From: an uncultured Candidatus Saccharibacteria bacterium
Lineage (GTDB): Bacteria; Patescibacteriota; CALEFQ01; G965231055
Direction of reading: 5' to 3'
Assembly (NCBI GenBank): GCA_965231055.1
Contig: OZ246411.1
Span: 665,875 to 729,874 of the forward strand
DNA length: 64,000 nt
Part shown: piece after piece, positions 4,242 through 63,935 of the stretch
Layout of the letters: each line of letters begins with the position of its first letter
Position numbering within the stretch: position 1 is the first letter of the stretch
Notes under the pieces: generated by a model
The model's database searches: none
Told to the model about the DNA's origin: nothing
Seen by the model: only the letters and a program-made list of their open reading frames with translations
Program-made: the position numbers and the translations under genes

Positions 4242-5402
4242 ATGAATATATATTTTGATAACGCAGCCACCACACAAACAGACAAAAAAGTAGTGGAAAA
4301 AATGCTTCCCTTTTTTGGAGAAAAATATGGCAACACCTCGTCAATTCACGCTTTTGGCTCAGAAGCTCTTTTTGCAGTAGATAAAGCCCGCAAGCAAGTT
4401 GCTGACTTTTTAAACTGCAACCCCGAAGAAATAATCTTTACGAGTAGCGCCACTGAGTCAAACAATACCATCCTAAAAACAATTCCAAATATTATACGAG
4501 GCAAATATCCTAAGAAAAATAAAATAGTGATAAGCTCCGTGGAGCATCATTGCGTCCTTGATTCTGCAAAATCAATGAAAGACAATGGATTTGAAATAGT
4601 CATGCTCCCAATAGACAAAGAGGGGATTGTAGATATAAAAAAAGCTAAATCCTTGATAAATGACGAGGTCGCTCTCGTCTCAGTCATGTATGCAAATAAT
4701 GAAATCGGAACAATTATGCCCATAAGAGAACTAGCTGACTTGGCACATAAAAATGGTGCACTATTTCACACAGACGCAGTTCAGGCTATCAATTATCTTG
4801 ATTGTGATGTGAAAAAACTTGATGTGGATTTTCTTTCTTTGTCTGCACATAAGTTTTACGGACCAAAGGGTACCGGAGCCCTATACCACAGATCTGGTAT
4901 AAAAATCACTCCCTACTTGCATGGAGGAGCCCAAGAATTCAACTATAGGGCGGGTACGCTAAACACTCCTGGAATAGTTGGACTAGGTGAAGCTATAGCT
5001 ATGGCAAAAAAAGAAAGAAACAAAAGATATTCTCACGCGCAAGCGCTCAAAAATAAACTCTTTCAATCTCTAAAAAAGGAACTCGGGGATGACATAAGAT
5101 TAAACGGATCCAATGAAAAACGCCTACCAAACAATCTAAATATTTCATTCAGCAAAGTTGAAGGAGAAGGCATGCTTTTGGGTCTTGACCTAGAGGGTGT
5201 CGCGGCATCTACTGGATCTGCGTGCTCCTCAATGTCACTTGAGCCCTCTCATGTACTCATGGCACTTTACAATGATCCACTCAAAGCACATGGCTCAATA
5301 CGATTTTCATTCGGAAAATACAATACATTGGCGGAGGTAAAAAGAGCTTCAAAAATAATAGCAAAAGTATATAAAAGATTAAGAGCACTTTCACCCTTAT
5401 AA
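4242..5402 (+). CDS. iscS: Cysteine desulfurase (class I NifS/IscS)
   Basis: MNIYFDNAATT, SAHKFYGPKG (PLP-Lys) and GS.CSS active-site Cys region; 386 aa. Confidence 0.8.
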   Translation: MNIYFDNAATTQTDKKVVEKMLPFFGEKYGNTSSIHAFGSEALFAVDKARKQVADFLNCNPEEIIFTSSATESNNTILKTIPNIIRGKYPKKNKIVISSVEHHCVLDSAKSMKDNGFEIVMLPIDKEGIVDIKKAKSLINDEVALVSVMYANNEIGTIMPIRELADLAHKNGALFHTDAVQAINYLDCDVKKLDVDFLSLSAHKFYGPKGTGALYHRSGIKITPYLHGGAQEFNYRAGTLNTPGIVGLGEAIAMAKKERNKRYSHAQALKNKLFQSLKKELGDDIRLNGSNEKRLPNNLNISFSKVEGEGMLLGLDLEGVAASTGSACSSMSLEPSHVLMALYNDPLKAHGSIRFSFGKYNTLAEVKRASKIIAKVYKRLRALSPL

Positions 5403-5416
5403 TTAATCACAAATTT

Positions 5417-5803
5417 ATGTATACAAAGCAAATAATAAACGAGTTCAAAGATCCAAAAAACAGAGGAGTTATAAAAAATCCAGACGGGGTGGGGGAAATA
5501 GGAAATCCTACCTGTGGAGATATGATGACTCTATATATAAAAGTAGACAGTAAAAAGAAGCTTTCCGATGTTAAGTTTCAGACATATGGGTGTGGCGCAG
5601 CCATTGCCACTTCTTCCATGCTCACAAAAATGGCAAAAGGAAAAACAATAAGTACGGCTAGCAAGATTACCAAAGACGATATACTAAAAAAGCTTGGAGG
5701 CAAAGACAAAATACCTCTTCAAAAATTTCATTGTAGTGTACTTGCAGTGGACGCATTAAAAGAGGCCATAAAGGACTACGAGAAAAAAACAAAGACTAAA
5801 TGA
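5417..5803 (+). CDS. iscU: Fe-S cluster assembly scaffold IscU/NifU-like
   Basis: NPTCGDMMTLYIKVD, YGCGAAIATSS, FHCSVLAVDALK supply the three conserved Cys of IscU. It lies directly downstream of the cysteine desulfurase. Confidence 0.8.
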   Translation: MYTKQIINEFKDPKNRGVIKNPDGVGEIGNPTCGDMMTLYIKVDSKKKLSDVKFQTYGCGAAIATSSMLTKMAKGKTISTASKITKDDILKKLGGKDKIPLQKFHCSVLAVDALKEAIKDYEKKTKTK

Positions 5804-14200: not shown

Positions 14201-15010
14201 TTGAATATTATGCAAATTAAAAACACAAAAAACATAATAATATTTTACATAATGATCGCGCTTGCTAGTGCCGGTCTCGTGGTTTTTATCTGGAAATTCA
14301 CAGGAATAAATACACAGCTAACTGCCGAAACTGACAACTCCACAATAGTGGCCGAGATCACGCCGGAAGAGGTAAAAACTATGATTGATAAAAATGAAAA
14401 TTTCTTCCTAGTAGACGTACGAGACGCCACTGAATACAGCAAAAATGGTCATATCGAGGGTGCGCTCAATATACCACTTTCAGAACTTGAAGCTAAGCAA
14501 ATTGTACTACCAAAAGATAAACTAATAATAGTAATGTGCGATGGTAATAATTGCCGAAGAAGTTCCTATGGAGTAGCTGCACTATACAAGCTTGGGTTTA
14601 GAAATTTGAAAAACTTTAAATCAGGAACGGCTGGATGGAAAGAAGCGGGATACGATCTAGTCAACGGAGCTCCACCGGTACTACCAACAATAATTAGTGA
14701 AATTAGTTGCGAGGAGCTTAAAAATAAAATGAATTCGGAAAACAACTTATTTATTATAGACATTAGATCAAAAGAAGAATATAACGCTGGACACATAACA
14801 AACGCTCAACGATTCGATTACACAAGCATTAAACAATCTTTCAGAGATGGCAAAATCCCCTCAGACAAAGAGCTGATAATCTACGACTCAACCAATCTCC
14901 GAGCTAGAGTTGCAACAGAAGAACTAATGACAGTCAACGCTAGTAATATAAAAATGCTGACGGGTGGAATGGATGAGTGGATAGCCAAAGGATTCCAAAT
15001 CGAAGAATAA
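14201..15010 (+). CDS. Membrane-anchored tandem rhodanese-domain protein
   Basis: N-terminal TM helix. Rhodanese domain 1 (FLVDVRDATEYSKNGHIEGALNIP ... VMCDGNNCRRS) carries a Cys loop. Domain 2 (FIIDIRSKEEYNAGHITNA ... IIYDSTNLRA) has Asp in place of the catalytic Cys and is probably inactive. Confidence 0.65.
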   Translation: MNIMQIKNTKNIIIFYIMIALASAGLVVFIWKFTGINTQLTAETDNSTIVAEITPEEVKTMIDKNENFFLVDVRDATEYSKNGHIEGALNIPLSELEAKQIVLPKDKLIIVMCDGNNCRRSSYGVAALYKLGFRNLKNFKSGTAGWKEAGYDLVNGAPPVLPTIISEISCEELKNKMNSENNLFIIDIRSKEEYNAGHITNAQRFDYTSIKQSFRDGKIPSDKELIIYDSTNLRARVATEELMTVNASNIKMLTGGMDEWIAKGFQIEE

Positions 15011-15020
15011 TCTCAAATAA

Positions 15021-15056
15021 AAACCCGCCTTCGAAAAGATCTGGCGGGTTTTTTAT
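15021..15056. terminator. Bidirectional rho-independent terminator
   Basis: AAACCCGCC ... GGCGGGTTT stem followed by TTTTT; lies between convergent genes. Confidence 0.6.
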
Positions 15057-15063
15057 ATTCCAA

Positions 15064-15708
15064 TTATTTATCTGATTGCAGAATCTGATCAATTTTAGCA
15101 GAAACGGTTTCCAAGGAAAAACCGACGGTACTTATATCAAATTCTTCGTTATTGATAAAAATATACGGAGTATAATTTACCGAAGAATCATTTCCACTTT
15201 TCATATCATTCTTAACTCTTTCTTTTACTGCATTATTTGTTCTGTCGCTCTTGAACTGATCCATGTTTAATCCAAGAGAATTAGCTATCGCCAAAACATC
15301 CGCGTCCTCCAAGCTATTTGCCTCCATCAAAGCATCATGCATTTCCCAAAATTTACCCTGAAGTCCAGCAGCCTCAGCAGCGGAGGCCACATCAAAAGCA
15401 GTTGGGTGAAGAGATGCTATAGGATAGTGTCTATGAACAAATTTAATTTTACCAGCATATTTGTCTAGCAAAGTTTTCGAGATCTTGTGAAAAGTTCTGC
15501 ATCCAGGGCAAAAATAGTCACTATAAACAACGATTTCAATTGGAGCATCATCATCTCCCCTTTGCCAATCATCTTGGCTTATCGACACCTTTAAATCACT
15601 TTCACTTGTGGCGTCATCTTTTTCCTTGGTTGAGCCCAGGATAAACATAAGCGCTATAATAATAACTATAATAGCTACTACAATAATCACTATATGGGAT
15701 GTTTTCAT
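15064..15708 (-). CDS. DsbA-family thiol:disulfide oxidoreductase, membrane-anchored
   Basis: N-terminal TM helix plus a thioredoxin-fold CPGC active site (DYFCPGCRTFH) and a DsbA-like helical insert. Confidence 0.7.
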   Translation of the reverse strand: MKTSHIVIIVVAIIVIIIALMFILGSTKEKDDATSESDLKVSISQDDWQRGDDDAPIEIVVYSDYFCPGCRTFHKISKTLLDKYAGKIKFVHRHYPIASLHPTAFDVASAAEAAGLQGKFWEMHDALMEANSLEDADVLAIANSLGLNMDQFKSDRTNNAVKERVKNDMKSGNDSSVNYTPYIFINNEEFDISTVGFSLETVSAKIDQILQSDK

Positions 15709-15712
15709 ATAT

Positions 15713-16075
15713 TTATTTATTAAAATTATTTAAACCTCTTTTTAATGTAGCCATAGCGAAACTTGAGCAAGTCAGTTTCTCAGGAGGTAACCCCCCGAGA
15801 GCACTCACCACATCTGCATCATCAAGCTTCATTATTTCTGCAATTTTTTTACCCATAACCATCTCACTCATCATAGATGCGGAAGCCACGGCAGCAGCAC
15901 AACCCAAGACTTTGTATTTTATATCAGTAAGTATATCGTCATCGACTGTGCCCCAGATTTTTATCGTATCACCGCATGTTGGATTAATCACCTCACTCAC
16001 AAATGAGGGATTTTTTATTTCACCTACATTTTTAGGGTTTTTGAAATGCTCCTCTACTAGTTCGTTGTATTTCAT
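15713..16075 (-). CDS. Second IscU/NifU-like scaffold paralog
   Basis: NPTCGDTIKIW, LGCAAAVASAS and LTCSSFAMATLK conserve the three IscU Cys positions; 120 aa. It is distinct from the iscU at 5417. Confidence 0.65.
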   Translation of the reverse strand: MKYNELVEEHFKNPKNVGEIKNPSFVSEVINPTCGDTIKIWGTVDDDILTDIKYKVLGCAAAVASASMMSEMVMGKKIAEIMKLDDADVVSALGGLPPEKLTCSSFAMATLKRGLNNFNK

Positions 16076-16079
16076 AAAT

Positions 16080-17225
16080 TTAGAATAATAGAATCACACC
16101 GAGCATAACAAGAATTGCGCCCATTATCAATTTGAGCCAACGCTTGCCTCTGTGTTCAAATTCTTTCACGGCAACCATATTTGAAGTAACACCAATAATC
16201 ACAAGAACCACAATGAGAGGTACTACAAACATCAAATTGTAAATGGAAAGATATCCGGCAGTAGTAGCTAACGAGGATGCACTATCGGCAATTAGCTTAC
16301 TAGTACCCAAATACAAAGGAAGTGAGCAAGGAGCCTCAAACAAAGTCACCATAACAGCAAGTAGCGCCACCAATGGATAGCTTGCCACCATGGCAAGCTT
16401 TTGAATTTTGGGAAAAGCACCTTTGCTTATGCCCAAAAACAATCCTTTTCCAAACCAGAAAAAATCTTTGAGATTTATTATCCCAGCGAAAATCAAAATC
16501 ACACCCAATACAGTATTTAAAGTAAGTGAAATAACAGCATAGTATTGATTCCCCAGAAGTTGTTCTATGCTTTTTACAAAAACAAGTCCTATTACAAAAT
16601 AAACTACAAAAGTAGTTACTATATAAATAATTCCGGTGATCCAAAGTCGGCTTCTTTTTCCAGCAAATGTAATAAGATAACCAAGGAGAAAAACTATAAC
16701 TGCTATAGCGCATGGATTGATTCCGTCTATAAGCCCCAAAGTCAGCACAACTGACAGATTTTTTAGATCCATATTTGAAGTTGCCTCACTCGAGACCACG
16801 CAAAACTCGTCGCTCTCGCTAAGTGCTCCCTGATAACCCTCTATCCCATCAACCAAAACATATATTTCAACAAATCCGAGCTTGGAAAGCTTCATACCAG
16901 ATTCCTCAGCGAGACTACAAGTCGTAGTGGAACAATAAACTACAGTAGGCTTGGTTTTGTCAAAACGCGAAATCGTATCTTTGTTTATTTCGTTTATAGG
17001 ACAAGAAACTGCATCAGGAATATGCCCCAAAGAAAATTCTCTTTCACTTCTCACATCTATAAGCTGAACATCTTTTGATTCAGAAATTTCTCTAAATTCA
17101 CTGACTGTAATATTTTTTATAGATGATATGTCTCCGAGTGCCCATTTGCCATCCACAATAAATCCTGTGAAGCCAGCCACAATGGCGATAATGCCAAGTA
17201 TAAATATTTTTTGCCAAGTATTCAT
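16080..17225 (-). CDS. Rhodanese-domain / CcdA (DsbD transmembrane domain) fusion protein
   Basis: N-terminal TM, then a rhodanese fold (VQLIDVRSEREFSLGHIPDAVSCP ... VVYCSTTTCSLAEE) with an atypical CSTTTCS loop. A CcdA-like polytopic domain follows, with two TM Cys (GINPCAIAV and FEAPCSLPLYLG). Confidence 0.65.
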   Translation of the reverse strand: MNTWQKIFILGIIAIVAGFTGFIVDGKWALGDISSIKNITVSEFREISESKDVQLIDVRSEREFSLGHIPDAVSCPINEINKDTISRFDKTKPTVVYCSTTTCSLAEESGMKLSKLGFVEIYVLVDGIEGYQGALSESDEFCVVSSEATSNMDLKNLSVVLTLGLIDGINPCAIAVIVFLLGYLITFAGKRSRLWITGIIYIVTTFVVYFVIGLVFVKSIEQLLGNQYYAVISLTLNTVLGVILIFAGIINLKDFFWFGKGLFLGISKGAFPKIQKLAMVASYPLVALLAVMVTLFEAPCSLPLYLGTSKLIADSASSLATTAGYLSIYNLMFVVPLIVVLVIIGVTSNMVAVKEFEHRGKRWLKLIMGAILVMLGVILLF

Positions 17226-17233
17226 GCCCTAGC

Positions 17234-18454
17234 TTATTTAATAGATTTTTTAGTTGCCTCTATTACTCTTTTTACAGCTAACAAGTATCCTGCCTCTCTA
17301 AATGTATTTGAGTTATTTTTTGATGCAAAAACTTTTTCACAAGCTAAGTCTATATGCTTTTTAAGCTTAGCGTTGACATCAGACAAAGACCAATGCTCGT
17401 TTTGTTTGTTTTGCAACCATTCAAAATAGGACACTATAACTCCACCACTATTTACCAATATATCAGGAATCACTGGGATCTTTTTTTGTGATAAAACTTC
17501 GTCAGCTTCTGGGCTAACAGGACCATTGGCTATTTCCAAAACCATTTTAGCTCTAACTGCATTAACATTTGAATCTGTAATAACTCCATCAATAGCCGAA
17601 GGTGCCAAAACATCTAACTCAAGAGATAGCAATTCTTCGTTGGTAATATCCTTGGCAAATCCTTTTAGGTTTCTATTGGCTTTTTTGTATGCAATAGCTT
17701 TTTCTATGTCGATACCGTTTTCATCATAAGTTGCAGTTTTTGAATCCGAAATCGCAACTATTTTATACCCAGCTTGGCTTGCGAGTTTTGCAAACCATCC
17801 GCCAGCATTGCCTATTCCCTGAACCGCTATAGTAGAACCATTTTTTAATCCCAGTTTTTCTGCAAAAAATTGGAGTGTGTAAAGCGCACCTTGACCCGTA
17901 GCTGCATCTCTGCCCTCTGATCCACCTTCCTCCAAAGGCTTACCCGTAATTACTGCGGGAACTGATTCGCCTACCAATTTTTCGTACTCATCTCTCATCC
18001 ATTTCATAATTCTAGCATCTGTATTTACATCAGGAGCTGGAACATCCAAATCTGGGCCGATATTACGATATATACCCCTTATAAAGCCCCTAGAAAGCGA
18101 TTCTAGCTCTTTTACGCTTAATTCCGAGGGATCTACTGTGACACCACCTTTTCCACCACCCAGAGGAATCCCTGCGAGCGAGCACTTCCAAGTCATCCAC
18201 ATAGCAAGAGCTTTTACCTCGTCAGGATTTACGTTTTCGTGAAATCTGATACCTCCCTTATATGGACCAAGCGCACTTGAGTGTTGAGATCTGTAACCCT
18301 TAAAGATTTTGATATTTCCTGAATCCATTTTTACAGGAATAGAAATCTCTATAAATCTCTCGGGAGATTTCAAGATTTCAATAATCTCACCGTCCTCAGC
18401 AAAACTTGAGGAAACTTTATCTAATTGTTTTTTTGCGTTTTCGAATGCATTCAT
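17234..18454 (-). CDS. gdhA: Glutamate dehydrogenase (Glu/Leu/Phe/Val dehydrogenase family)
   Basis: KGGIRFHENVNPDEVKALAMWMTWKCSLAGIPLGGGKGG contains the catalytic Lys region. C-terminal NAD(P)-binding GIGNAGG. Confidence 0.8.
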   Translation of the reverse strand: MNAFENAKKQLDKVSSSFAEDGEIIEILKSPERFIEISIPVKMDSGNIKIFKGYRSQHSSALGPYKGGIRFHENVNPDEVKALAMWMTWKCSLAGIPLGGGKGGVTVDPSELSVKELESLSRGFIRGIYRNIGPDLDVPAPDVNTDARIMKWMRDEYEKLVGESVPAVITGKPLEEGGSEGRDAATGQGALYTLQFFAEKLGLKNGSTIAVQGIGNAGGWFAKLASQAGYKIVAISDSKTATYDENGIDIEKAIAYKKANRNLKGFAKDITNEELLSLELDVLAPSAIDGVITDSNVNAVRAKMVLEIANGPVSPEADEVLSQKKIPVIPDILVNSGGVIVSYFEWLQNKQNEHWSLSDVNAKLKKHIDLACEKVFASKNNSNTFREAGYLLAVKRVIEATKKSIK

Positions 18455-19065
18455 TAGAAAATATTAATATTTAAAAGTAATAACCCACCAAGTATTAAAA
18501 GAATTATTCCTGCGATAATATCTAGAGTCTTTGCATTTTTAATTCTACTACTTATAAATTTGGCTATTAGTATGGAGACAAGGGCACCCAAAAGAAAACC
18601 CACTCCAAATCCAAGTATCTCAGTAAGTGTTCTCGCCCTATCCCACATAACCACAGAAGCAACCACAAAATCATTTAATCCGCTAACCAAAATATAAATC
18701 AAAAATCCGATTAAAAAATTGTGTAGATATCCTTTGGAAAGTCCACCTCTCTCAACATGGCGATTTACATGAAATGGTATGCGTTCTGCGAAAGCATCCC
18801 AAAGTTCTTTGAGAGCTATAACTATAACTATGACGGCTGGAATTTTTATAGCAAAACCCGAGAGCTCATAATCTCCAAAAAGCCACGCAACTATCATAGC
18901 TAGTACCAATCCAACAATAGCACCCACAAAATTACCAAGCATCAGAAACCTTTTGCTTTTTCCCGAAGTCTTTTTGAGTGAGATAGCTACCAAAATCAAA
19001 TCATCTACCCCCGTAGCAAACCAAGCAAAAATTCCCAATAAAATTGCGCCAATCAGAGGCAACAT
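18454..19065 (-). CDS. CadD-family (cadmium-resistance-transporter-like) membrane protein
   Basis: Two internal repeats with intramembrane Asp (ATGVDDLILV and SGLNDFVVAS) parallel the TSIDYLVIL / GADNIGIFV repeats of CadD; ~200 aa, 5-6 TM. Confidence 0.45.
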   Translation of the reverse strand: MLPLIGAILLGIFAWFATGVDDLILVAISLKKTSGKSKRFLMLGNFVGAIVGLVLAMIVAWLFGDYELSGFAIKIPAVIVIVIALKELWDAFAERIPFHVNRHVERGGLSKGYLHNFLIGFLIYILVSGLNDFVVASVVMWDRARTLTEILGFGVGFLLGALVSILIAKFISSRIKNAKTLDIIAGIILLILGGLLLLNINIF

Positions 19066-19161: not shown

Positions 19162-19191
19162 AAATAGCCCCGCAGAATTGCAGGGCTATTT
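19162..19191 (-). terminator. Terminator hairpin downstream of surface protein gene 19202-21214 (copy 1 of a repeated hairpin)
   Basis: AAATAGCCC [cGCAGAATTGCa] GGGCTATTT followed by a U-tract on the minus strand. Confidence 0.55.
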
Positions 19192-19201
19192 GATTATCAT
19201 T

Positions 19202-21214
19202 TTATCTAATTGGCGTATTATCTATATCTAGTGGTTTTTTCTTGTCATCATCTTTTCTTCTCTTTCCAAGTATCCACCATAGAAATAGGATAATAATTAT
19301 GAGTATTAGCCAGAACCACCATTTCGTGAGAAGCCATTTGAAACTATTCCAGAAACTAGATGCTTCCGCTTTTAGGTTTGGATCATCTTGATCATCCGCT
19401 CCCAAAACTGTACCATCTTTTTCTTCGTCTTTATTCTCATCTTCTTCTGTGGCTTCGTCATCCGCTCCTCCACCAGTTCCAAATGCGGTGGTGCCAGCAA
19501 CAGTTCCCGTAGTAGCGGTTGTCGTAGTAGAAGAAGTTGTCCCTCTATTTATAGTATTTTCTTCTGTGTTTTCATCTGTGACACCAGCGACAGTTCCTTG
19601 ATCATCGGCATCATCATCGTTGTCTTGGTCATCATCTTGTGGAACATCTTCAGTTGCCAAGGTGAGTCCCCAAACGGATGAATCAACACTCCATCTTCCA
19701 AAACTGTCTTTGGCTTTTACTTTCCAAGAATAATTTCCCTCTGGCAAATTCAATGTAAGATTTGTATCGGTTGTATAGTGAGTAGCTCCATTTACGGTAA
19801 GTTCATATTCGGTAGCATCATCAACTGCGGTCCATGTAAAAGCTACATCGGCTGGTTCGGTTTCAAATCCATTTGCAGGAGAGATAAGTGTAGGCGCATC
19901 TGGAGCAGTAGTATCAACTGTAAATTGCCATGTTTCACTCCAAGGACTTTCATTTCCCGCAGAATCCCTTGCAATCACCTTCCATGAGTGCAAGCCTTCT
20001 GAAAAAACCCATGGATACTGTTTCTCAGTTAAGTCAGAGACAAGAAGTGAATCATCAAGATACACATCGTAATACAATGAATCAACCACAACACCCTTTA
20101 TAGAAGGAATTGTTCCAAAATCTTCATAATCCCATTCCAAAGTAATATTTGGATCATTTGTTACAAAACTATTTACGGGAGCATAAAGTACTGGGGCGTT
20201 TGGACTTATCGTATCAATAGTAAAATTCCAAGTTTCGCTCCAGGGACCTTTTACACCATCAGAATCAATAACTCTCATTTTCCACTGCCAATCGCCATTT
20301 ATTCCCATCATAAAAGCACAAATATCATTACTGGTAGTTTGCGATGGATCAGTAATCTTAATCTGAACAGATAAAGGACCCCTTAAAGAAACTTCGAATC
20401 CAGATAAAAACGAGCTATCCTGATTCGGATTCCAAGAAAAAGAGGGGCAAGAATTCCCAACTAAAGAATTATTTGCTGGAGCAACTAGTATAGGAGTTTT
20501 TAGAGTGGGTTTTTCAATAATAAAATTCCATGTTTCACTCCAAGGACCTTTCATACCTCTATGATCAACAACTCTCATCTTCCACTGCCAGTTCCCAGTA
20601 GTTAAACGAATTCCAGCAAGATTTGTTTGATAAGCATCATTGATAGAAAACTGCATATAATCAGAACCGTTACGATAAAGTTTTAGTTCGTAACCCGACA
20701 ACCCAGAAATTTCTTGATTTGAATCCCAGATAAAATTAGGATAAAGTGAATTTATCGTTGAGTTATTGGCTGGAGAAATTAGTATTACTCGAGCCAGTTC
20801 CCTAGGAGCTACGCTGTAAATGCCAGAGGAATCAATTAGACCGCTAGCACCAAATGATTTTGTATTGGAATTAGTTTTTACTATAGCTTTGTCTTTTGCA
20901 ACTACTGAAAGTTCTTTTTCAACTACTTTGACTTCCGAGGTAGCTTCGTCAGCTTTTGATACAACCTCATCTACCACGACTTCTGGTTCAGTCACCTCTT
21001 CTGGCTCTTCTTGAGCTAGATCAGATAGTGGAGCTCCTGGGACTATTTCATCTTCCAAGACAACACTCTCTACTGGAGTAACTTCTTCTGTCGCAACTTC
21101 TTCAGGAGCATTTGCGTAAATAGCTGGAGCAGAATTCATAAAGAGCATAGAAAAGATAACACAAAAAGCAAAAAGCTTTAGTGCACTTTTCTTTGAACTG
21201 GAGGGGATTTTCAT
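19202..21214 (-). CDS. Large secreted surface protein with FN3-like repeats, acidic/Thr-rich stalk and a C-terminal KWWFWLIL membrane anchor
   Basis: Signal peptide. Four repeats carry W..K....D..G..(S/G)PWSETW(N/Q)FT(I/V)(D/E), resembling fibronectin-III. DDQDNDDDADD and T-rich low complexity follow. The C-terminus is FWNSFKWLLTKWWFWLILIIIILFLWWILGKRRKDDDKKK. Confidence 0.6.
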   Translation of the reverse strand: MKIPSSSKKSALKLFAFCVIFSMLFMNSAPAIYANAPEEVATEEVTPVESVVLEDEIVPGAPLSDLAQEEPEEVTEPEVVVDEVVSKADEATSEVKVVEKELSVVAKDKAIVKTNSNTKSFGASGLIDSSGIYSVAPRELARVILISPANNSTINSLYPNFIWDSNQEISGLSGYELKLYRNGSDYMQFSINDAYQTNLAGIRLTTGNWQWKMRVVDHRGMKGPWSETWNFIIEKPTLKTPILVAPANNSLVGNSCPSFSWNPNQDSSFLSGFEVSLRGPLSVQIKITDPSQTTSNDICAFMMGINGDWQWKMRVIDSDGVKGPWSETWNFTIDTISPNAPVLYAPVNSFVTNDPNITLEWDYEDFGTIPSIKGVVVDSLYYDVYLDDSLLVSDLTEKQYPWVFSEGLHSWKVIARDSAGNESPWSETWQFTVDTTAPDAPTLISPANGFETEPADVAFTWTAVDDATEYELTVNGATHYTTDTNLTLNLPEGNYSWKVKAKDSFGRWSVDSSVWGLTLATEDVPQDDDQDNDDDADDQGTVAGVTDENTEENTINRGTTSSTTTTATTGTVAGTTAFGTGGGADDEATEEDENKDEEKDGTVLGADDQDDPNLKAEASSFWNSFKWLLTKWWFWLILIIIILFLWWILGKRRKDDDKKKPLDIDNTPIR

Positions 21215-34760: not shown

Positions 34761-34834
34761 TCCGGGATCGTCTAACGGTAGGACAGTGGACTCTGGATCC
34801 ACTAATCTTGGTTCAAATCCAAGTCCCGGAGCCA
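34761..34834 (+). tRNA. tRNA-Gln (anticodon CUG), CCA encoded
   Basis: Manual fold: acceptor TCCGGGA/TCCCGGA, D-arm GTCT-AACGGTA-GGAC, anticodon arm GTGGA-CTCTGGA-TCCAC (CTG), variable TAAT, T-arm CTTGG-TTCAAAT-CCAAG, discriminator G, CCA. Confidence 0.85.
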
Positions 34835-42771: not shown

Positions 42772-42845
42772 GCGGGATTGGTCTAGTGGTAGGACGTAAC
42801 CTTCCCAAGGTTGAGGCGCGAGTTCGATTCTCGTATCCCGCTCCA
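42772..42845 (+). tRNA. tRNA-Gly (anticodon CCC), CCA encoded
   Basis: Manual fold: acceptor GCGGGAT/ATCCCGC, D-arm GTCT-AGTGGTA-GGAC, anticodon arm TAACC-TTCCCAA-GGTTG (CCC), T-arm GCGAG-TTCGATT-CTCGT, discriminator T, CCA. Confidence 0.85.
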
Positions 42846-42892: not shown

Positions 42893-42968
42893 GCCGGCAT
42901 AGCTCAGTTGGTAGAGCAACCCCTTCGTAAGGGGTAGGTCATCAGTTCAAGTCTGATTGCCGGCTCCA
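42893..42968 (+). tRNA. tRNA-Thr (anticodon CGU), CCA encoded
   Basis: Manual fold: acceptor GCCGGCA/TGCCGGC, D-arm GCTC-AGTTGGTA-GAGC, anticodon arm ACCCC-TTCGTAA-GGGGT (CGT), variable AGGTC, T-arm ATCAG-TTCAAGT-CTGAT, discriminator T, CCA. Confidence 0.85.
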
Positions 42969-63518: not shown

Positions 63519-63935
63519 AAGACCCAGAAAACCTATAAGCCGGATTCTGTACGCACCTTTTGTGCGCGATAATCATCTATCTCGACTTTGCCTCGCGACA
63601 AAGTTCCTTGCGATTGGATCCCATACTAGATGGGCCCACCAATCTTGCACCAGGTAAAGTTTGCATCTCTCGCTAGTTACTTAGCGAGACTGTGAGCTCT
63701 TACCTCACTCTTTTCACCCTTACCAGTCATACAAAATGCATAACTGGCGGTATTGTCTCTGTTGCACTTGTTCTTAGCCATAAAATTCAAAAGCGAATTC
63801 GCCCCTTGAATAATTTAGCTAGCCACCCGTTAGGTGGTACCATGCCCACAGCAAAGCCGTGGCGGTGTCCGGACTTTCCTCTATTATTGGGCTTTGTAAG
63901 CCAAAATAACAGCGATTATCCAGCTTTCTGGGTCA
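63519..63935 (-). ncRNA. rnpB: RNase P RNA (bacterial type A)
   Basis: Minus-strand transcript contains GAGGAAAGUCCGGAC, AGUGCAACAGAGACAAUACCGCC, GGUAAGGGUGAAAAGAGUGAGGUAAGAGCUCAC and ACAGAAUCCGGCUUAU. All are close matches to the universally conserved M1 RNA regions. P1 pairs GACCCAGAAAGC with GGUUUUCUGGGUC. Confidence 0.85.

Follow-up and report, generated by a model that had tools for sequence, protein, structure and literature searches.

Gene content and organization of the locus

Within the window (the whole stretch of DNA analyzed, 64 kb), five genes on the minus strand make up a predicted operon coding for a six-TM protein, a glutamate dehydrogenase (GDH), a rhodanese-membrane fusion, a NifU-like protein and a DsbA-like protein. 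A tandem rhodanese lies beyond its 3' end, and a housekeeping NifS-IscU pair, outside the operon, served as comparator.

4242..5803, plus strand: comparator, NifS (4242-5402; Pfam Aminotran_5, 3.4e-89) and IscU (5417-5803; NifU_N, 8e-46)
14201..15010, plus strand: tandem rhodanese, 269 aa, separate convergent transcription unit (Pfam Rhodanese, two domains, 6.7e-37)
14537-14554, plus strand: its domain-1 loop C113-DGNN-C118, followed by Arg (sequence)
14885-14887, plus strand: D229 of its domain 2, in the place of the catalytic Cys (sequence)
15020..15052, no strand assigned: hairpin AAAACCCGCC-(13 nt)-GGCGGGTTTT, rich in G+C, in the gap that separates the convergent genes (sequence inspection)
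15064..15708, minus strand: DsbA-like protein, 214 aa (Pfam Thioredoxin_4, 5e-23; DSBA, 9.9e-16)
15499-15510, minus strand: its C67-P-G-C70 motif (sequence)
15713..16075, minus strand: NifU_N/IscU-like paralog, 120 aa (Pfam NifU_N, 1.2e-32)
16080..17225, minus strand: fusion protein, 381 aa (ORF; Pfam Rhodanese and PF11139)
17234..18454, minus strand: GDH, 406 aa (Pfam ELFV_dehydrog, 9.6e-64)
18454..19065, minus strand: six-TM protein, 203 aa, family unassigned, with an internal repeat; opens the predicted operon
19162..19191, minus strand: strong terminator-like hairpin (13-bp stem plus T-run) at the end of the gene upstream of the operon

A preliminary description had singled out the tandem rhodanese and the last three operon members as a cluster of four adjacent genes. 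The four ORFs and their domain calls (Pfam) were upheld, and so was the adjacency; three of the genes are minus-strand operon members and the tandem rhodanese is convergent, on the plus strand. The operon call derives from the intergenic gaps of 4 to 8 bp, the terminators on both flanks and the like layout in the related loci L085 and L086. The hairpin at 19162..19191 is the 5' boundary of the predicted operon, and the one at 15020..15052, passed over by the automatic scan because its loop exceeds 8 nt, is a candidate bidirectional terminator. The GDH gene ends 8 bp upstream of the fusion gene, the order GDH-fusion recurs in L086, and the enzyme is probably a source of NAD(P)H encoded within the same operon. 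The 203-aa six-TM protein gave nothing above threshold in Pfam or NCBIfam, and a counterpart with 54% identity is found upstream of GDH in L086.

When the conservation of these neighbors was examined in relatives, the four-gene layout was present in L085 and L086, the fusion and the NifU-like gene in L001, and a trio of NifU-like, DsbA-like and membrane protein in deeper CPR loci. The strong E-values, together with a layout kept in two relatives, place the four-gene observation far beyond chance. The NifU_N gene follows the fusion at 2 to 4 bp in three loci (L085, L001 and the window) and at about 75 bp in L086.

The tandem rhodanese has one hydrophobic N-terminal anchor and carries Asp (D229) for the catalytic Cys in domain 2, as had been described from the beginning; its position and motifs are unchanged in L085 and L086. 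NCBI's call for this protein is 252 aa, and the starts of its relatives indicate that translation probably begins at the ATG at 14210. Its apparent tie to the other genes consists only of proximity in close relatives and a common C-x4-C loop. The DsbA-like protein, also confirmed as membrane anchored (N-terminal anchor by hydropathy) and bearing a CPGC site, has a DsbA/BdbD-type thioredoxin fold, and among solved structures it comes closest to DsbA-like oxidoreductases, MdbA and BdbD. The three signal-anchored proteins of the locus are predicted to be extracytoplasmic, in agreement with the preliminary description.

The NifU-like protein is indeed a second IscU-like copy, separate from the NifS-IscU genes at 4242-5803, and is predicted to be cytoplasmic. 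It has the NifU_N signature of SufU and IscU, three Cys and one Asp (C34, D36, C59 and C103 are retained), and an alignment places Thr102 (codon 15770-15772) at the position of the conserved His of IscU. This residue is Lys in SufU, a sulfur-transfer protein that likewise works without the cluster-ligand His before the third Cys; the SufU-type insertion is absent from the paralog. Of the 120 best homologs, 116 carry H-C-S, T or V appears solely in the clade of this paralog, and the housekeeping IscU retains the canonical F-H-C-S. Unlike SufU and IscU, the paralog falls under every NCBIfam equivalog cut-off (139.5 bits against NifU_clost, whose cut-off is 187.9) and has no adjacent desulfurase gene.

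The rhodanese-membrane fusion

The fusion protein combines an N-terminal anchor, a rhodanese domain and a six-helix membrane domain with two cysteines.

17151..17216, minus strand: N-terminal TM anchor, residues ~4-25 (hydropathy; AF2 helix 3-25)
16821..17120, minus strand: rhodanese domain, residues ~36-135 (Pfam match to residues 40-133, E=4.4e-17)
16917..16934, minus strand: active-site loop C98-S-T-T-T-C103, a C-x4-C dithiol motif followed by Ser, Arg absent
16083..16772, minus strand: six-TM membrane domain, residues 152-381, also delimited as 160-380 (Pfam PF11139)
16710-16712, minus strand: codon of C172, motif D-G-I-N-P-C-A in TM1, invariant in alignments
16326-16328, minus strand: codon of C300, motif E-x-P-C-S-L-P in TM4, invariant in alignments

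The assignment of the N-terminal domain to the rhodanese fold was borne out by the AF2 model (pLDDT 86), which in Foldseek matched 3o3w, 3mzz, GlpE and YgaP in the PDB with target-normalised TM-scores of 0.73 to 0.84. PDB profile matches also support a rhodanese, with C98 aligned to the catalytic Cys of rhodanese 6mxv. The preliminary description regarded the active-site loop as odd and devoid of Arg. The Arg is certainly absent, but the loop is no oddity: two-Cys loops occur in all 14 fusions (C-x4-C in 13 and C-x3-C in one) and a U-x4-U counterpart exists in TsoB. Judged from these alignments, C98-x4-C103 is a conserved dithiol motif, beyond the mere loss of Arg. The architecture itself is rare (7 of 1.84e9 representative clusters). 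K/R-rich loops (residues 187-191, 257-282 and 345-362) are located on the side opposite the rhodanese, which the positive-inside rule predicts to be outside.

For the membrane domain, the sole Pfam match above threshold was PF11139 (SfLAP, 36.4 bits versus a cut-off of 35), not the canonical DsbD model PF02683. Both P-C cysteines, in TM1 and TM4, are invariant in 54 of 54 aligned sequences. A profile search of the PDB gave one match, CcdA (5vkv, E=0.062), collinear and with both redox Cys aligned, and Foldseek gave no significant structural match for this domain. Members of the family matched DsbD_2 in 9 of 31 cases and DsbD_TM in 3 of 31. By these profiles the domain is a relative within the DsbD/CcdA superfamily, of a PF11139-type branch, whose link to CcdA is real yet remote. 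The two-Cys membrane half of the proposed rhodanese-CcdA fusion stands, and the CcdA label is a loose one.

Comparison with known systems

With CcdA of Thermus thermophilus (PDB 5VKV; clients ResA and CcmG), the fusion shares the six-TM core, a post-Pro Cys in TM1 and TM4 aligned with C172 and C300, a predicted N-out/C-out topology and, in related loci, thioredoxin and thioredoxin reductase as neighbors. It differs in the marginal similarity, in having PF11139 and not PF02683 as best Pfam model, in its TM1 motif (D-G-I-N-P-C-A versus S-P-C-V-L-P) and in its fused rhodanese, where CcdA works with a separate Trx-fold protein. As a CPR bacterium, the host probably lacks c-type cytochromes, a setting unlike that of CcdA. 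As in DsbD/ScsB, an extracytoplasmic acceptor domain is fused to a two-Cys membrane core and a separate signal or anchor takes the N-terminal domain out of the cytoplasm; however, DsbD has eight TM helices plus terminal domains that are Ig-like (N) and Trx-like (C), whereas the fusion has 1+6 TM helices, a single rhodanese and no C-terminal domain.

The rhodanese-membrane architecture is not unprecedented, since NCBIfam already defines TsoB (NF045694, "rhodanese/DsbD fusion-like selenoprotein"), described with a U-x4-U loop (Haft & Tolstoy 2025, as given in PMC13188914). Residues 48-378 of the fusion lie on model positions 57-389, with collinear rhodanese and DsbD-like regions, and the two-chalcogen loops have equal spacing, C-x4-C here and U-x4-U in TsoB as that source presents it. 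Nevertheless, the fusion scores 34 bits where 805 would be needed to pass, has Cys for Sec, comprises 381 aa against a 572-position model of which the C-terminal ~180 residues are absent, and comes from another lineage, with no Tso operon neighbors seen. We know of no experimental function for TsoB. PspE, a periplasmic rhodanese of E. coli, is reviewed as acting with DsbC (Chng et al. 2012, per PMC5403849), and a comparable role of an extracytoplasmic rhodanese in thiol-disulfide chemistry with Dsb-type proteins is proposed for the fusion; PspE differs in being soluble, with a single Cys and no membrane-transporter fusion, and its effect was seen on overexpression.

The membrane family across genomes

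The family to which the membrane domain belongs is abundant in genomes of CPR and DPANN, and its neighborhoods were counted in 164 loci. Its usual companions are Trx-fold proteins, fused or adjoining, and Trx-TrxR(-GDH) is often next to it; where the fusion has a rhodanese, a Thioredoxin or Glutaredoxin domain forms the N-terminus of other members. Upstream of the membrane gene, a small C-x-x-C lipoprotein is found in 33/164 loci and a DsbA-like gene in 24/164; in at least 12 CPR loci the DsbA-like gene abuts the membrane gene (0 to 2 bp). Lgt, membrane gene, Trx and TrxR adjoin in L006, L007, L009, L011, L012, L027, L095, L097 and L107, the same set without Lgt in L096 and L101, and GDH comes after TrxR in L011, L027, L095, L096 and L101. 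TrxR-bearing clusters have a DsbA-like gene in or near them in L022, L027 and L097, two of which also have Trx. A split form, with an anchored C-x4-C rhodanese, a Trx-like lipoprotein and the membrane gene, is present in DPANN loci (L068, L072, L083, L130, L147, L153 and L164). More remote fusions have CAP and TrxR (L003-L005) or Fer4 and NAD-binding genes (L002) as neighbors. NifS-IscU or SufS-SufU genes are juxtaposed with the family in about 20 of the 164 loci, and three NifU_N lineages appear beside it: a His type next to NifS, the Thr/Val paralog and, within SUF operons, a SufU of the Lys type. These SUF operons provide the membrane protein with a DsbA-like partner on the outside, not with a rhodanese.

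A predicted thiol-redox operon of the cell envelope

The interpretation that we favor, with moderate confidence, is a conserved cell-envelope thiol-redox operon that would export reducing equivalents to an extracytoplasmic dithiol rhodanese. Domains, predicted topology, invariant cysteines and the conserved gene order frame this proposal, and direction, donors and substrates would be as follows. NAD(P)H, plausibly from the co-transcribed GDH, would ultimately feed a cytoplasmic reductant of C172/C300, the immediate donor being either a thioredoxin whose gene lies elsewhere in the genome or the IscU-like paralog next door, which lacks the His. Thiol-disulfide exchange between TM1 (C172) and TM4 (C300) would carry two electrons across the membrane to reduce the C98-C103 disulfide in the rhodanese domain, which is predicted to face outward and would fill the place held by a thioredoxin-fold partner in relatives. 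This dithiol rhodanese might reduce sulfane-sulfur or oxidised-thiol substrates (C98 attacking, C103 resolving) or hand the electrons on, the likely recipients being the anchored DsbA-like CPGC protein and the neighboring tandem rhodanese. Ordinary CcdA-type transfer is favored because of the family context of Trx-fold partners with Trx-TrxR-GDH nearby, and the reductive direction because Trx/TrxR(/GDH) lie beside membrane genes, TrxR also beside the fusions of L003-L005 and the DsbA-like clusters. Against this stand the marginal CcdA match, the null Foldseek result for the membrane domain, the 64-kb window (of a contig of ~844 kb), in which no Trx or TrxR gene was found, and the solved kin of the DsbA-like protein, which are oxidases and not reductases. 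If the prediction holds, a tiny Patescibacteria genome retains a cell-envelope thiol/sulfur redox module, as the preliminary description had emphasized, although how notable this is has been weakened by the frequency of the family in CPR and DPANN.

A plain Trx-to-CcdA pathway leaves the juxtaposition with NifS-IscU or SufS-SufU unexplained. The persulfide-across-the-membrane idea of the preliminary description would make the locus a system for sulfane-sulfur acquisition or relay: the rhodanese would load sulfur on C98 from thiosulfate, polysulfide or persulfides, C103 would resolve the persulfide, freeing sulfide, or the persulfide would pass via C172/C300 to the His-less IscU paralog, which would serve Fe-S assembly with no cysteine desulfurase dedicated to it (outward flow is equally possible). 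Rhodaneses are the classic carriers of persulfide, C98 occupies the position of the catalytic Cys in alignment, the NifU_N gene is close behind the fusion, three of its lineages accompany the family, and the paralog, with no desulfurase adjoining, has specifically lost the cluster-ligand His, as in SufU. We consider this relay unlikely all the same: we know of no DsbD-family protein that carries persulfide, most family members are paired with Trx-fold partners and Trx/TrxR rather than rhodaneses, the SUF-operon version uses a DsbA-like outside partner, the loop lacks the basic residues usual for active thiosulfate sulfurtransferases, and the window already has its own NifS-IscU. The same adjacency to NifS/SufS-NifU_N genes would be accounted for by oxidative folding in a quinone-less cell, in which the DsbA-like protein works as a genuine disulfide oxidase and the membrane protein and rhodanese replace DsbB/VKOR, sending electrons inward to a cytoplasmic acceptor, possibly an IscU/SufU-like persulfide (two electrons yielding sulfide). 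To our knowledge, CPR bacteria generally lack quinones; the DsbA-like genes abutting membrane genes resemble dsbA-dsbB or bdbDC operons, the closest solved relatives (MdbA, BdbD and DsbA) are all oxidases, and PspE with DsbC is reviewed as partly substituting for DsbA/DsbB in E. coli (PMC5403849). This scheme seems quite improbable given that the Trx-TrxR-GDH adjacency points to outward electrons and that, by textbook potentials, electrons leaving a DsbA-type couple would have to move uphill to reach persulfide or NAD(P)+.

The genes might also form no dedicated unit: a CcdA-like reductase of the envelope, an extra IscU, a DsbA and GDH, all ordinary housekeeping proteins, would have been packed together by genome compaction or shared stress regulation, next to an unrelated tandem rhodanese. 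CPR genomes are gene dense, with frequent mixed operons, the remoter fusions have other neighbors, and in Geomonas and Nitrospiraceae the tandem rhodaneses with a C-x4-C loop have no DsbD-like gene adjoining. What makes this very unlikely is the tight coupling (gaps of 0 to 10 bp), the at least three independent juxtapositions of NifU_N with the family, the His loss confined to the paralog beside the fusion, and the pairing of C-x4-C rhodanese and membrane protein, fused and split, in bacteria and archaea. Far-fetched in our opinion is a MerP-to-MerT- or ArsG-like relay, in which Cys pairs would bind a thiophilic metal or metalloid (Fe, Zn, As or Se, for instance) and pass it through the membrane, with the Cys-rich NifU-like protein as its source or destination. 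Selenoproteins do occur among the relatives of the rhodanese loop, and the membrane domain weakly matches the NCBIfam model of an organoarsenical efflux permease, ArsG (29 bits, E=6.3e-7), but all such matches are far under the family cut-offs, CcdA has aligned counterparts of the P-C motifs and of both Cys, and the Trx/TrxR neighbors suit redox chemistry, not transport.

Organization of the locus

All four open reading frames (ORFs) that the preliminary description had placed in a thiol/sulfur-trafficking cluster were recovered at their coordinates by ORF calling. They are indeed adjacent, but they do not share one orientation: the fusion (a rhodanese joined to a two-Cys, six-TM membrane domain), the NifU-like gene and the DsbA-like gene are on the minus strand, and the tandem rhodanese is on the plus strand, convergent with them. 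According to the ORF calls, the minus-strand genes belong to a series of five, with overlaps or gaps of at most 8 bp.

Genes of the locus
18454-19065, minus strand, six-TM protein of 203 aa, first gene of the predicted operon
17234-18454, minus strand, glutamate dehydrogenase (GDH), between the six-TM gene and the fusion
16080-17225, minus strand, fusion, with Pfam Rhodanese at residues 40-133 (4.4e-17) and the membrane domain at residues 160-380
15713-16075, minus strand, NifU-like gene (NifU_N, 1.2e-32)
15064-15708, minus strand, DsbA-like gene (Thioredoxin_4, 5e-23; DSBA, 9.9e-16), last of the five
14201-15010, plus strand, tandem rhodanese, two Pfam Rhodanese domains (E=6.7e-37), convergent

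A strong terminator-like hairpin (19191-19162) is found upstream of the five-gene series. Another hairpin (15020-15052), rich in G+C and bordered by runs of A and T, lies between the DsbA-like gene and the tandem rhodanese that converges on it. The promoter scan stayed at chance level (18 sites versus 16.9 expected). No homologs of thioredoxin (Trx), thioredoxin reductase (TrxR), FNR or Lgt were detected within the 64-kb window. The six-TM protein that opens the series contains an internal repeat (GVDDLILVA / GLNDFVVAS), resembles GDT1, TerC and DUF6404 only below threshold, and has a counterpart (54% identity) upstream of GDH in the homologous locus L086. Where the tandem rhodanese begins is ambiguous: mechanical ORF calling gives a TTG at 14201, the starts of its relatives favor the ATG at 14210 (266 aa), and the NCBI-derived model (252 aa, start at 14252) loses most of the N-terminal anchor.

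A conserved dithiol loop in the rhodanese domains

The N-terminal part of the fusion is a rhodanese by sequence and by predicted fold. It scored 62.8 bits against PF00581 (gathering score, 22.2), while the tandem protein reached 126.5 bits over two domains. The AF2 model of the fusion (pLDDT 86, pTM 0.73) starts with a helix (residues 3-25), followed by an alpha/beta domain that spans residues 36-135 and by six long helices, and Foldseek comparison of the full model with the PDB retrieved exclusively rhodaneses, including 3o3w, 3mzz, GlpE and YgaP, with target-normalised TM-scores of 0.73-0.84 and rmsd of 1.6-2.7 A (0.77 and 1.8 A for BH2092, 3o3w). Thus, the rhodanese fold proposed from the sequence survived structure prediction. 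A profile search of PDB sequences also matched rhodaneses and placed C98 on the catalytic Cys of 6mxv.

The active-site loop, C-S-T-T-T-C-S, differs from the classical C-x-x-G-x-[RK]-[ST] with its basic residues. The lack of Arg, pointed out from the sequence as unusual, is real, but the loop is not a mere oddity, as C-x4-C is conserved across the fusions. All 14 rhodanese fusions available retain C98 and have the loop Y/F-C-x4-C, with one exception (C-x3-C), so that position +5 of the loop is occupied by a conserved second Cys. The remaining Cys of the window protein, C75 and C142, are not conserved among these 14 proteins. The same spacing appears in domain 1 of the tandem rhodanese (C113-DGNN-C118-R in the window, CNGSNC in L086). 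This protein was described as membrane anchored and with Asp in place of the catalytic Cys of its second domain; one N-terminal hydrophobic anchor is predicted, and the replacement (D229) is present, for which reason domain 2 is probably inactive.

Exported tandem rhodaneses of Geomonas terrae (P0363, locus L087) and Nitrospiraceae (P0364, locus L088) also carry C-x4-C in domain 1 (Y-C-N-G-V-K-C). Both are located beside HGD-D and BcrAD_BadFG genes, with TusA additionally in L088. A general linkage of tandem rhodaneses with DsbD-like proteins was considered and rejected, given that these sole relatives outside the CPR (Patescibacteria) adjoin HGD-D/BcrAD genes and TusA and have no DsbD-like gene beside them.

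The membrane domain is a probable divergent relative of CcdA

The membrane domain had been described as CcdA/DsbD type, with two Cys. Both Cys and a remote kinship with CcdA were recovered, but the Pfam family above threshold is PF11139 and not DsbD. Across 54 homologs, D167, N170, P171, C172, Y209, C300, Y329 and F333 are invariant. Each Cys is preceded by Pro (N-P-C172 in TM1 and A-P-C300 in TM4, both invariant in the 54 sequences), and the AF2 helices break at N170-P171-C172 and near P299-C300. The six AF2 helices that follow the rhodanese, together with the positive-inside pattern, predict a six-TM core with both termini outside. The K/R-rich loops (187-191, 257-282 and 345-362) alternate with K/R-free ones (225-228 and 316-318), which places the rhodanese domain, by prediction, outside the membrane.

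When the profile of this domain was compared with the PDB, exactly one sequence appeared at E<=10, CcdA (5vkv, E=0.062), in an alignment collinear over the entire domain, in which N-P-C172 pairs with S-P-C, and A-P-C300 with T-P-C. The window protein itself matched neither PF02683 (DsbD_TM) nor PF13386 (DsbD_2); among 31 close family members, nine matched DsbD_2 (best, 1.8e-8) and three DsbD_TM. Foldseek comparison of a membrane-only AF2 model (pLDDT 84) with the PDB gave nothing significant, the best hits being unrelated transporters (E 0.8). We conclude from profiles and motifs that the domain probably represents a divergent branch of the DsbD/CcdA superfamily.

The match to PF11139 (SfLAP) is just above the gathering threshold of 35 (36.4 bits for the full protein and 38.8 for the membrane domain alone), and the homologous protein P0008 is named "GAP family protein" at NCBI. 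The Pfam name suggests lipid export of the mycobacterial Gap/Sap type. We rejected this candidate: no MmpL/Pks neighbors of glycolipid or sulfolipid export were found in the 164 loci compared, where the neighbors are thiol-redox and Fe-S genes instead.

The NifU-like and DsbA-like proteins

The NifU-like protein is, as had been noticed, a second copy, encoded 10 kb away from NifS (4242-5402) and from a canonical IscU (5417-5803, 155.7 bits). The paralog keeps three Cys and the Asp after the first of them (C34-G-D36, C59 and C103). Immediately before the third Cys it has Thr102, where 116 of the 120 best homologs have His; only three proteins among these 120, all of the window clade, have Thr or Val there. 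In the alignment, the NifU_N protein of L001 likewise has Val at this site. The paralog falls under every NCBIfam equivalog cut-off, with 139.5 bits versus 187.9 for NifU_clost and 87 versus 192.4 for IscU (comparison families TIGR03419 and TIGR01999). Its nearest relatives are NifU proteins of the clostridial type (49-53% identity), and 7c8n and 4eb5 are its relatives in the PDB. An identity as SufU (TIGR01994) was discarded in view of Thr instead of Lys and no Gram-positive insertion (in an alignment with a B. subtilis SufU sequence), a score of 78.6 versus 92.5 bits, and the greater closeness of clostridial-type NifU.

The last gene of the series was rightly taken for a membrane-anchored DsbA. 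It has an N-terminal anchor, a C-P-G-C active site (C67-PG-C70) and matches to PF13462 (82.5 bits) and PF01323 (58.5 bits), and its closest solved relatives are the oxidases MdbA and BdbD. No second C-x-x-C protein was seen within the 64-kb window, a part of the contig of 843,892 bp that carries the exact fusion protein at NCBI.

Distribution of the fusion and of the membrane family

The fusion is rare. A search of 1.84e9 representative proteins gave 7839 matches at E<=1e-3, but both domains were aligned in only seven representatives, and there were only nine clusters at 90% identity. Homologs are annotated as Patescibacteria. No further full-length fusion was present among the metagenome matches listed (600 stretches). 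The membrane domain on its own is abundant in CPR bacteria and DPANN archaea: species representatives contributed at least 570 relatives, and metagenome contigs at least 536. Many members of the family are 350-420 aa long and carry a Thioredoxin or Glutaredoxin domain at the N terminus, where the window protein has the rhodanese. It should be noted that the loci from several metagenome-assembled genomes labeled "uncultured Pseudomonadales" or "Gammaproteobacteria" (L006, L007, L009, L018, L036, L037 and L041) are CPR-like in gene content and similarity, so the taxonomy assigned to these bins may not be reliable.

Gene neighborhoods in relatives

We compared the surroundings of the membrane gene (with or without a fused partner) in 164 loci, chosen by similarity to the window protein, with our own ORF calling and phmmer/hmmsearch seeds; the comparison is descriptive. 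Conservation of the genes as neighbors, which had been left to be checked, was found in two relatives, L085 and L086, whose NifU-like genes are 83% and 74% identical to the window copy. The order in L086 is GDH, fusion, NifU-like, DsbA-like and the convergent tandem rhodanese, and L085 has the same genes minus GDH, with the fusion cut by the contig end. In L001, whose fusion shares 44% identity with that of the window, the next gene, 2 bp downstream, is again a NifU_N gene. More distant fusions have other surroundings. In L003-L005, CAP and TrxR are downstream, and in L002, Redoxin and Lgt are upstream and Fer4 and NAD-binding genes downstream.

Beyond the fusions, several types of neighborhood recur, and the metagenome scan reproduced them. 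Trx and TrxR adjoin in 11 related loci, where Lgt, membrane gene, Trx and TrxR are found together (L006, L007, L009, L011, L012, L027, L095, L097 and L107) or without Lgt (L096 and L101). The SUF type is represented by L016, with Pfam matches in the order sufC, sufB, sufD, SufS, SufU-like, DsbA-like, membrane gene, FNR-like, ferredoxin and SufT. Its SufS/SufU-like/DsbA-like/membrane-gene core is present in 12 loci from several CPR lineages, with gaps of 0-2 bp between the last two genes. In the NifS-IscU type (L015, L090, L092, L093, L102 and L104), the membrane gene is encoded together with NifS, IscU, an ArsR-like regulator and, in some cases, Nfu. The DPANN archaea showed three more. In the first, the membrane gene is accompanied by genes for a CCG-domain (LutA/HdrB-like) protein and a LutB-like Fe-S protein; in the second, it comes after the gene of a small C-x-x-C lipoprotein; and the third is a split version of the fusion, with an anchored C-x4-C rhodanese (CYS[IGM]PC), a Trx-like C-x-x-C lipoprotein and the membrane gene.

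Homologous loci or proteins of particular types
SUF-embedded DsbA-like and membrane genes: L013, L016, L017, L019, L021, L037, L043, L099, L105, L108, L113, L114
Membrane gene followed by CCG-domain gene, list 1: L026, L028, L030, L033, L044, L046, L048, L052, L058
Membrane gene followed by CCG-domain gene, list 2: L080, L110, L135, L137, L143, L145, L149, L155, L165
Split rhodanese: L068, L072, L083, L130, L147, L153, L164
N-terminal C-x-S-x-G-C proteins: L015 (5950-6675), L092 (5124-5852), L102 (5133-5864); P0024, P0027

The sets of loci with TrxR, NifU_N and CCG neighbors did not overlap in the 84 loci first analyzed, and did so only in L101 and L165 of the metagenome set. The NifU_N proteins next to the membrane gene are not of one kind. 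The SUF-operon versions, with R-M-K-C-A-T-L-A, form a separate lineage that resembles SufU but lacks the insertion, and the NifS-linked ones are ordinary H-C-S IscUs. As both differ from the window paralog, at least three NifU_N lineages have been placed beside the membrane family.

Some details of these loci can be added. GDH comes after TrxR in the CPR loci L011, L027, L095, L096 and L101, and is beside the fusion in the window and L086. The stand-alone membrane proteins encoded right after NifS-IscU have an N-terminal C-x-S-x-G-C (again C-x4-C) just before TM1, on the same side as the rhodanese of the fusions. The DPANN membrane genes that precede a CCG-domain gene are often N-terminally extended, with the LutB-like gene present in most of the loci. 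The split archaeal loci often include a basic protein of ca. 100 aa.

Relationship to TsoB

The closest annotated architecture is TsoB (NCBIfam NF045694), a rhodanese/DsbD-like fusion whose motif is given as U-x-x-x-x-U, with two Sec, in a 2026 review (PMC13188914). The fusion scored 34.1 bits against the TsoB model, far below the curated cut-off of 805, but the layout is collinear (fusion residues 48-378 on model positions 57-389), and U-x4-U and C-x4-C have the same two-chalcogen spacing. TsoB has Sec (UGA), whereas the fusion has Cys codons in an uninterrupted ORF, and neither TsoA nor TsoC is among the neighbors of the fusion, which are the GDH, NifU-like and DsbA genes. The C-x4-C loop, this weak collinear match and the TsoB motif make the window protein a short all-Cys analogue of the fusion architecture already annotated. 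The TsoB-type architecture is not known to have been characterised.

In the literature searched on rhodanese-CcdA/DsbD fusions and CPR DsbA, no such fusion was described, apart from TsoB in the selenoprotein review. The component families are known, and TsoB already stands in the catalogue as a rhodanese/DsbD-like fusion with a two-chalcogen x4 loop. What appears to be new is the all-Cys CPR fusion, together with the split C-x4-C rhodanese versions of DPANN archaea; the systematic swap of a Trx-fold partner for a rhodanese; and the repeated embedding, inside SUF or NifS-IscU operons, of genes for DsbA-like and CcdA-like proteins, along with an IscU paralog that lacks the His.

Possible function

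Quinones and respiratory chains are generally considered to be missing from CPR bacteria and DPANN archaea, and the locus bears on how these microbes control the redox state of the cysteines that they export. The main candidate for this control is a divergent family of CcdA-like proteins, which has thousands of members. In one of its clades a dithiol rhodanese has taken the place of the usual thioredoxin-fold partner, giving an all-Cys equivalent of the selenoprotein architecture annotated recently. The best-supported reading, from motifs and gene context, is a CcdA-type transfer of reducing equivalents outward, in which the dithiol rhodanese would be the fused acceptor and the DsbA-like protein would act downstream of it, as might the tandem rhodanese. 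The Trx-fold partners found family-wide, the Trx-TrxR(-GDH) neighbors and the P-C motifs shared with CcdA argue for it, as does the presence of DsbA-like genes within or close to clusters in which TrxR is encoded too (L022, L027 and L097). GDH may be a local supplier of NAD(P)H for the envelope-reducing pathway, and the CCG-domain/LutB-like proteins may serve instead as the cytoplasmic partner that reduces disulfides.

Outward transfer does not explain the repeated linkage with NifU_N and desulfurase genes, nor the oxidase relatives of the DsbA-like protein. A sulfur relay or assimilation route, delivering sulfur into the His-less IscU-like protein, is conceivable, although we consider it rather unlikely. 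An oxidative role, with the membrane protein as a substitute for DsbB, is made plausible by the gene order (dsbA, then membrane gene) and by the precedent of PspE, an E. coli rhodanese that, together with DsbC, can partly replace DsbA/DsbB according to a review (PMC5403849); even so, it seems to us distinctly improbable. That the genes are merely packed in one operon is a slightly poorer bet still, and a relay of thiophilic metals, to which a weak ArsG match points, is very improbable indeed.

A broader and doubtful proposal is that, in CPR bacteria without quinones, a two-Cys membrane protein of the CcdA kind has been wired to the Fe-S/sulfur-mobilisation machinery, replacing or supplementing thioredoxin. 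The cytoplasmic partner would then be a NifU_N protein (IscU, SufU or the His-less paralog), and the thiol or sulfane-sulfur chemistry that the DsbA-like protein and the C-x4-C rhodanese carry out outside the cytoplasm would be in direct coupling with the reduction of persulfide or with the sulfur supply for Fe-S clusters. This could take the form of a transmembrane persulfide relay or of a scaffold-bound persulfide acting as electron sink or source. The membrane family is encoded repeatedly with IscU or SufU genes; should a functional link to Fe-S or sulfur mobilisation lie behind this, envelope redox chemistry and cluster biogenesis would be connected in a new way, and should it not, a large group of "GAP family" or hypothetical proteins would still gain a useful and testable annotation.

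Other features of the window

Upstream of the locus, a 670-aa protein (19202-21214, minus strand) has the look of a surface protein, with a signal sequence and several repeats of ca. 95 aa that carry the motif ...GPWSETWNF.I...; it also has an acidic stretch of low complexity and ends in a TM helix. The following ordinary housekeeping RNAs were also found.

63520-63931, minus strand, bacterial class-A RNase P RNA (200.6 bits)
34761-34831, plus strand, tRNA
42772-42842, plus strand, tRNA
42893-42965, plus strand, tRNA
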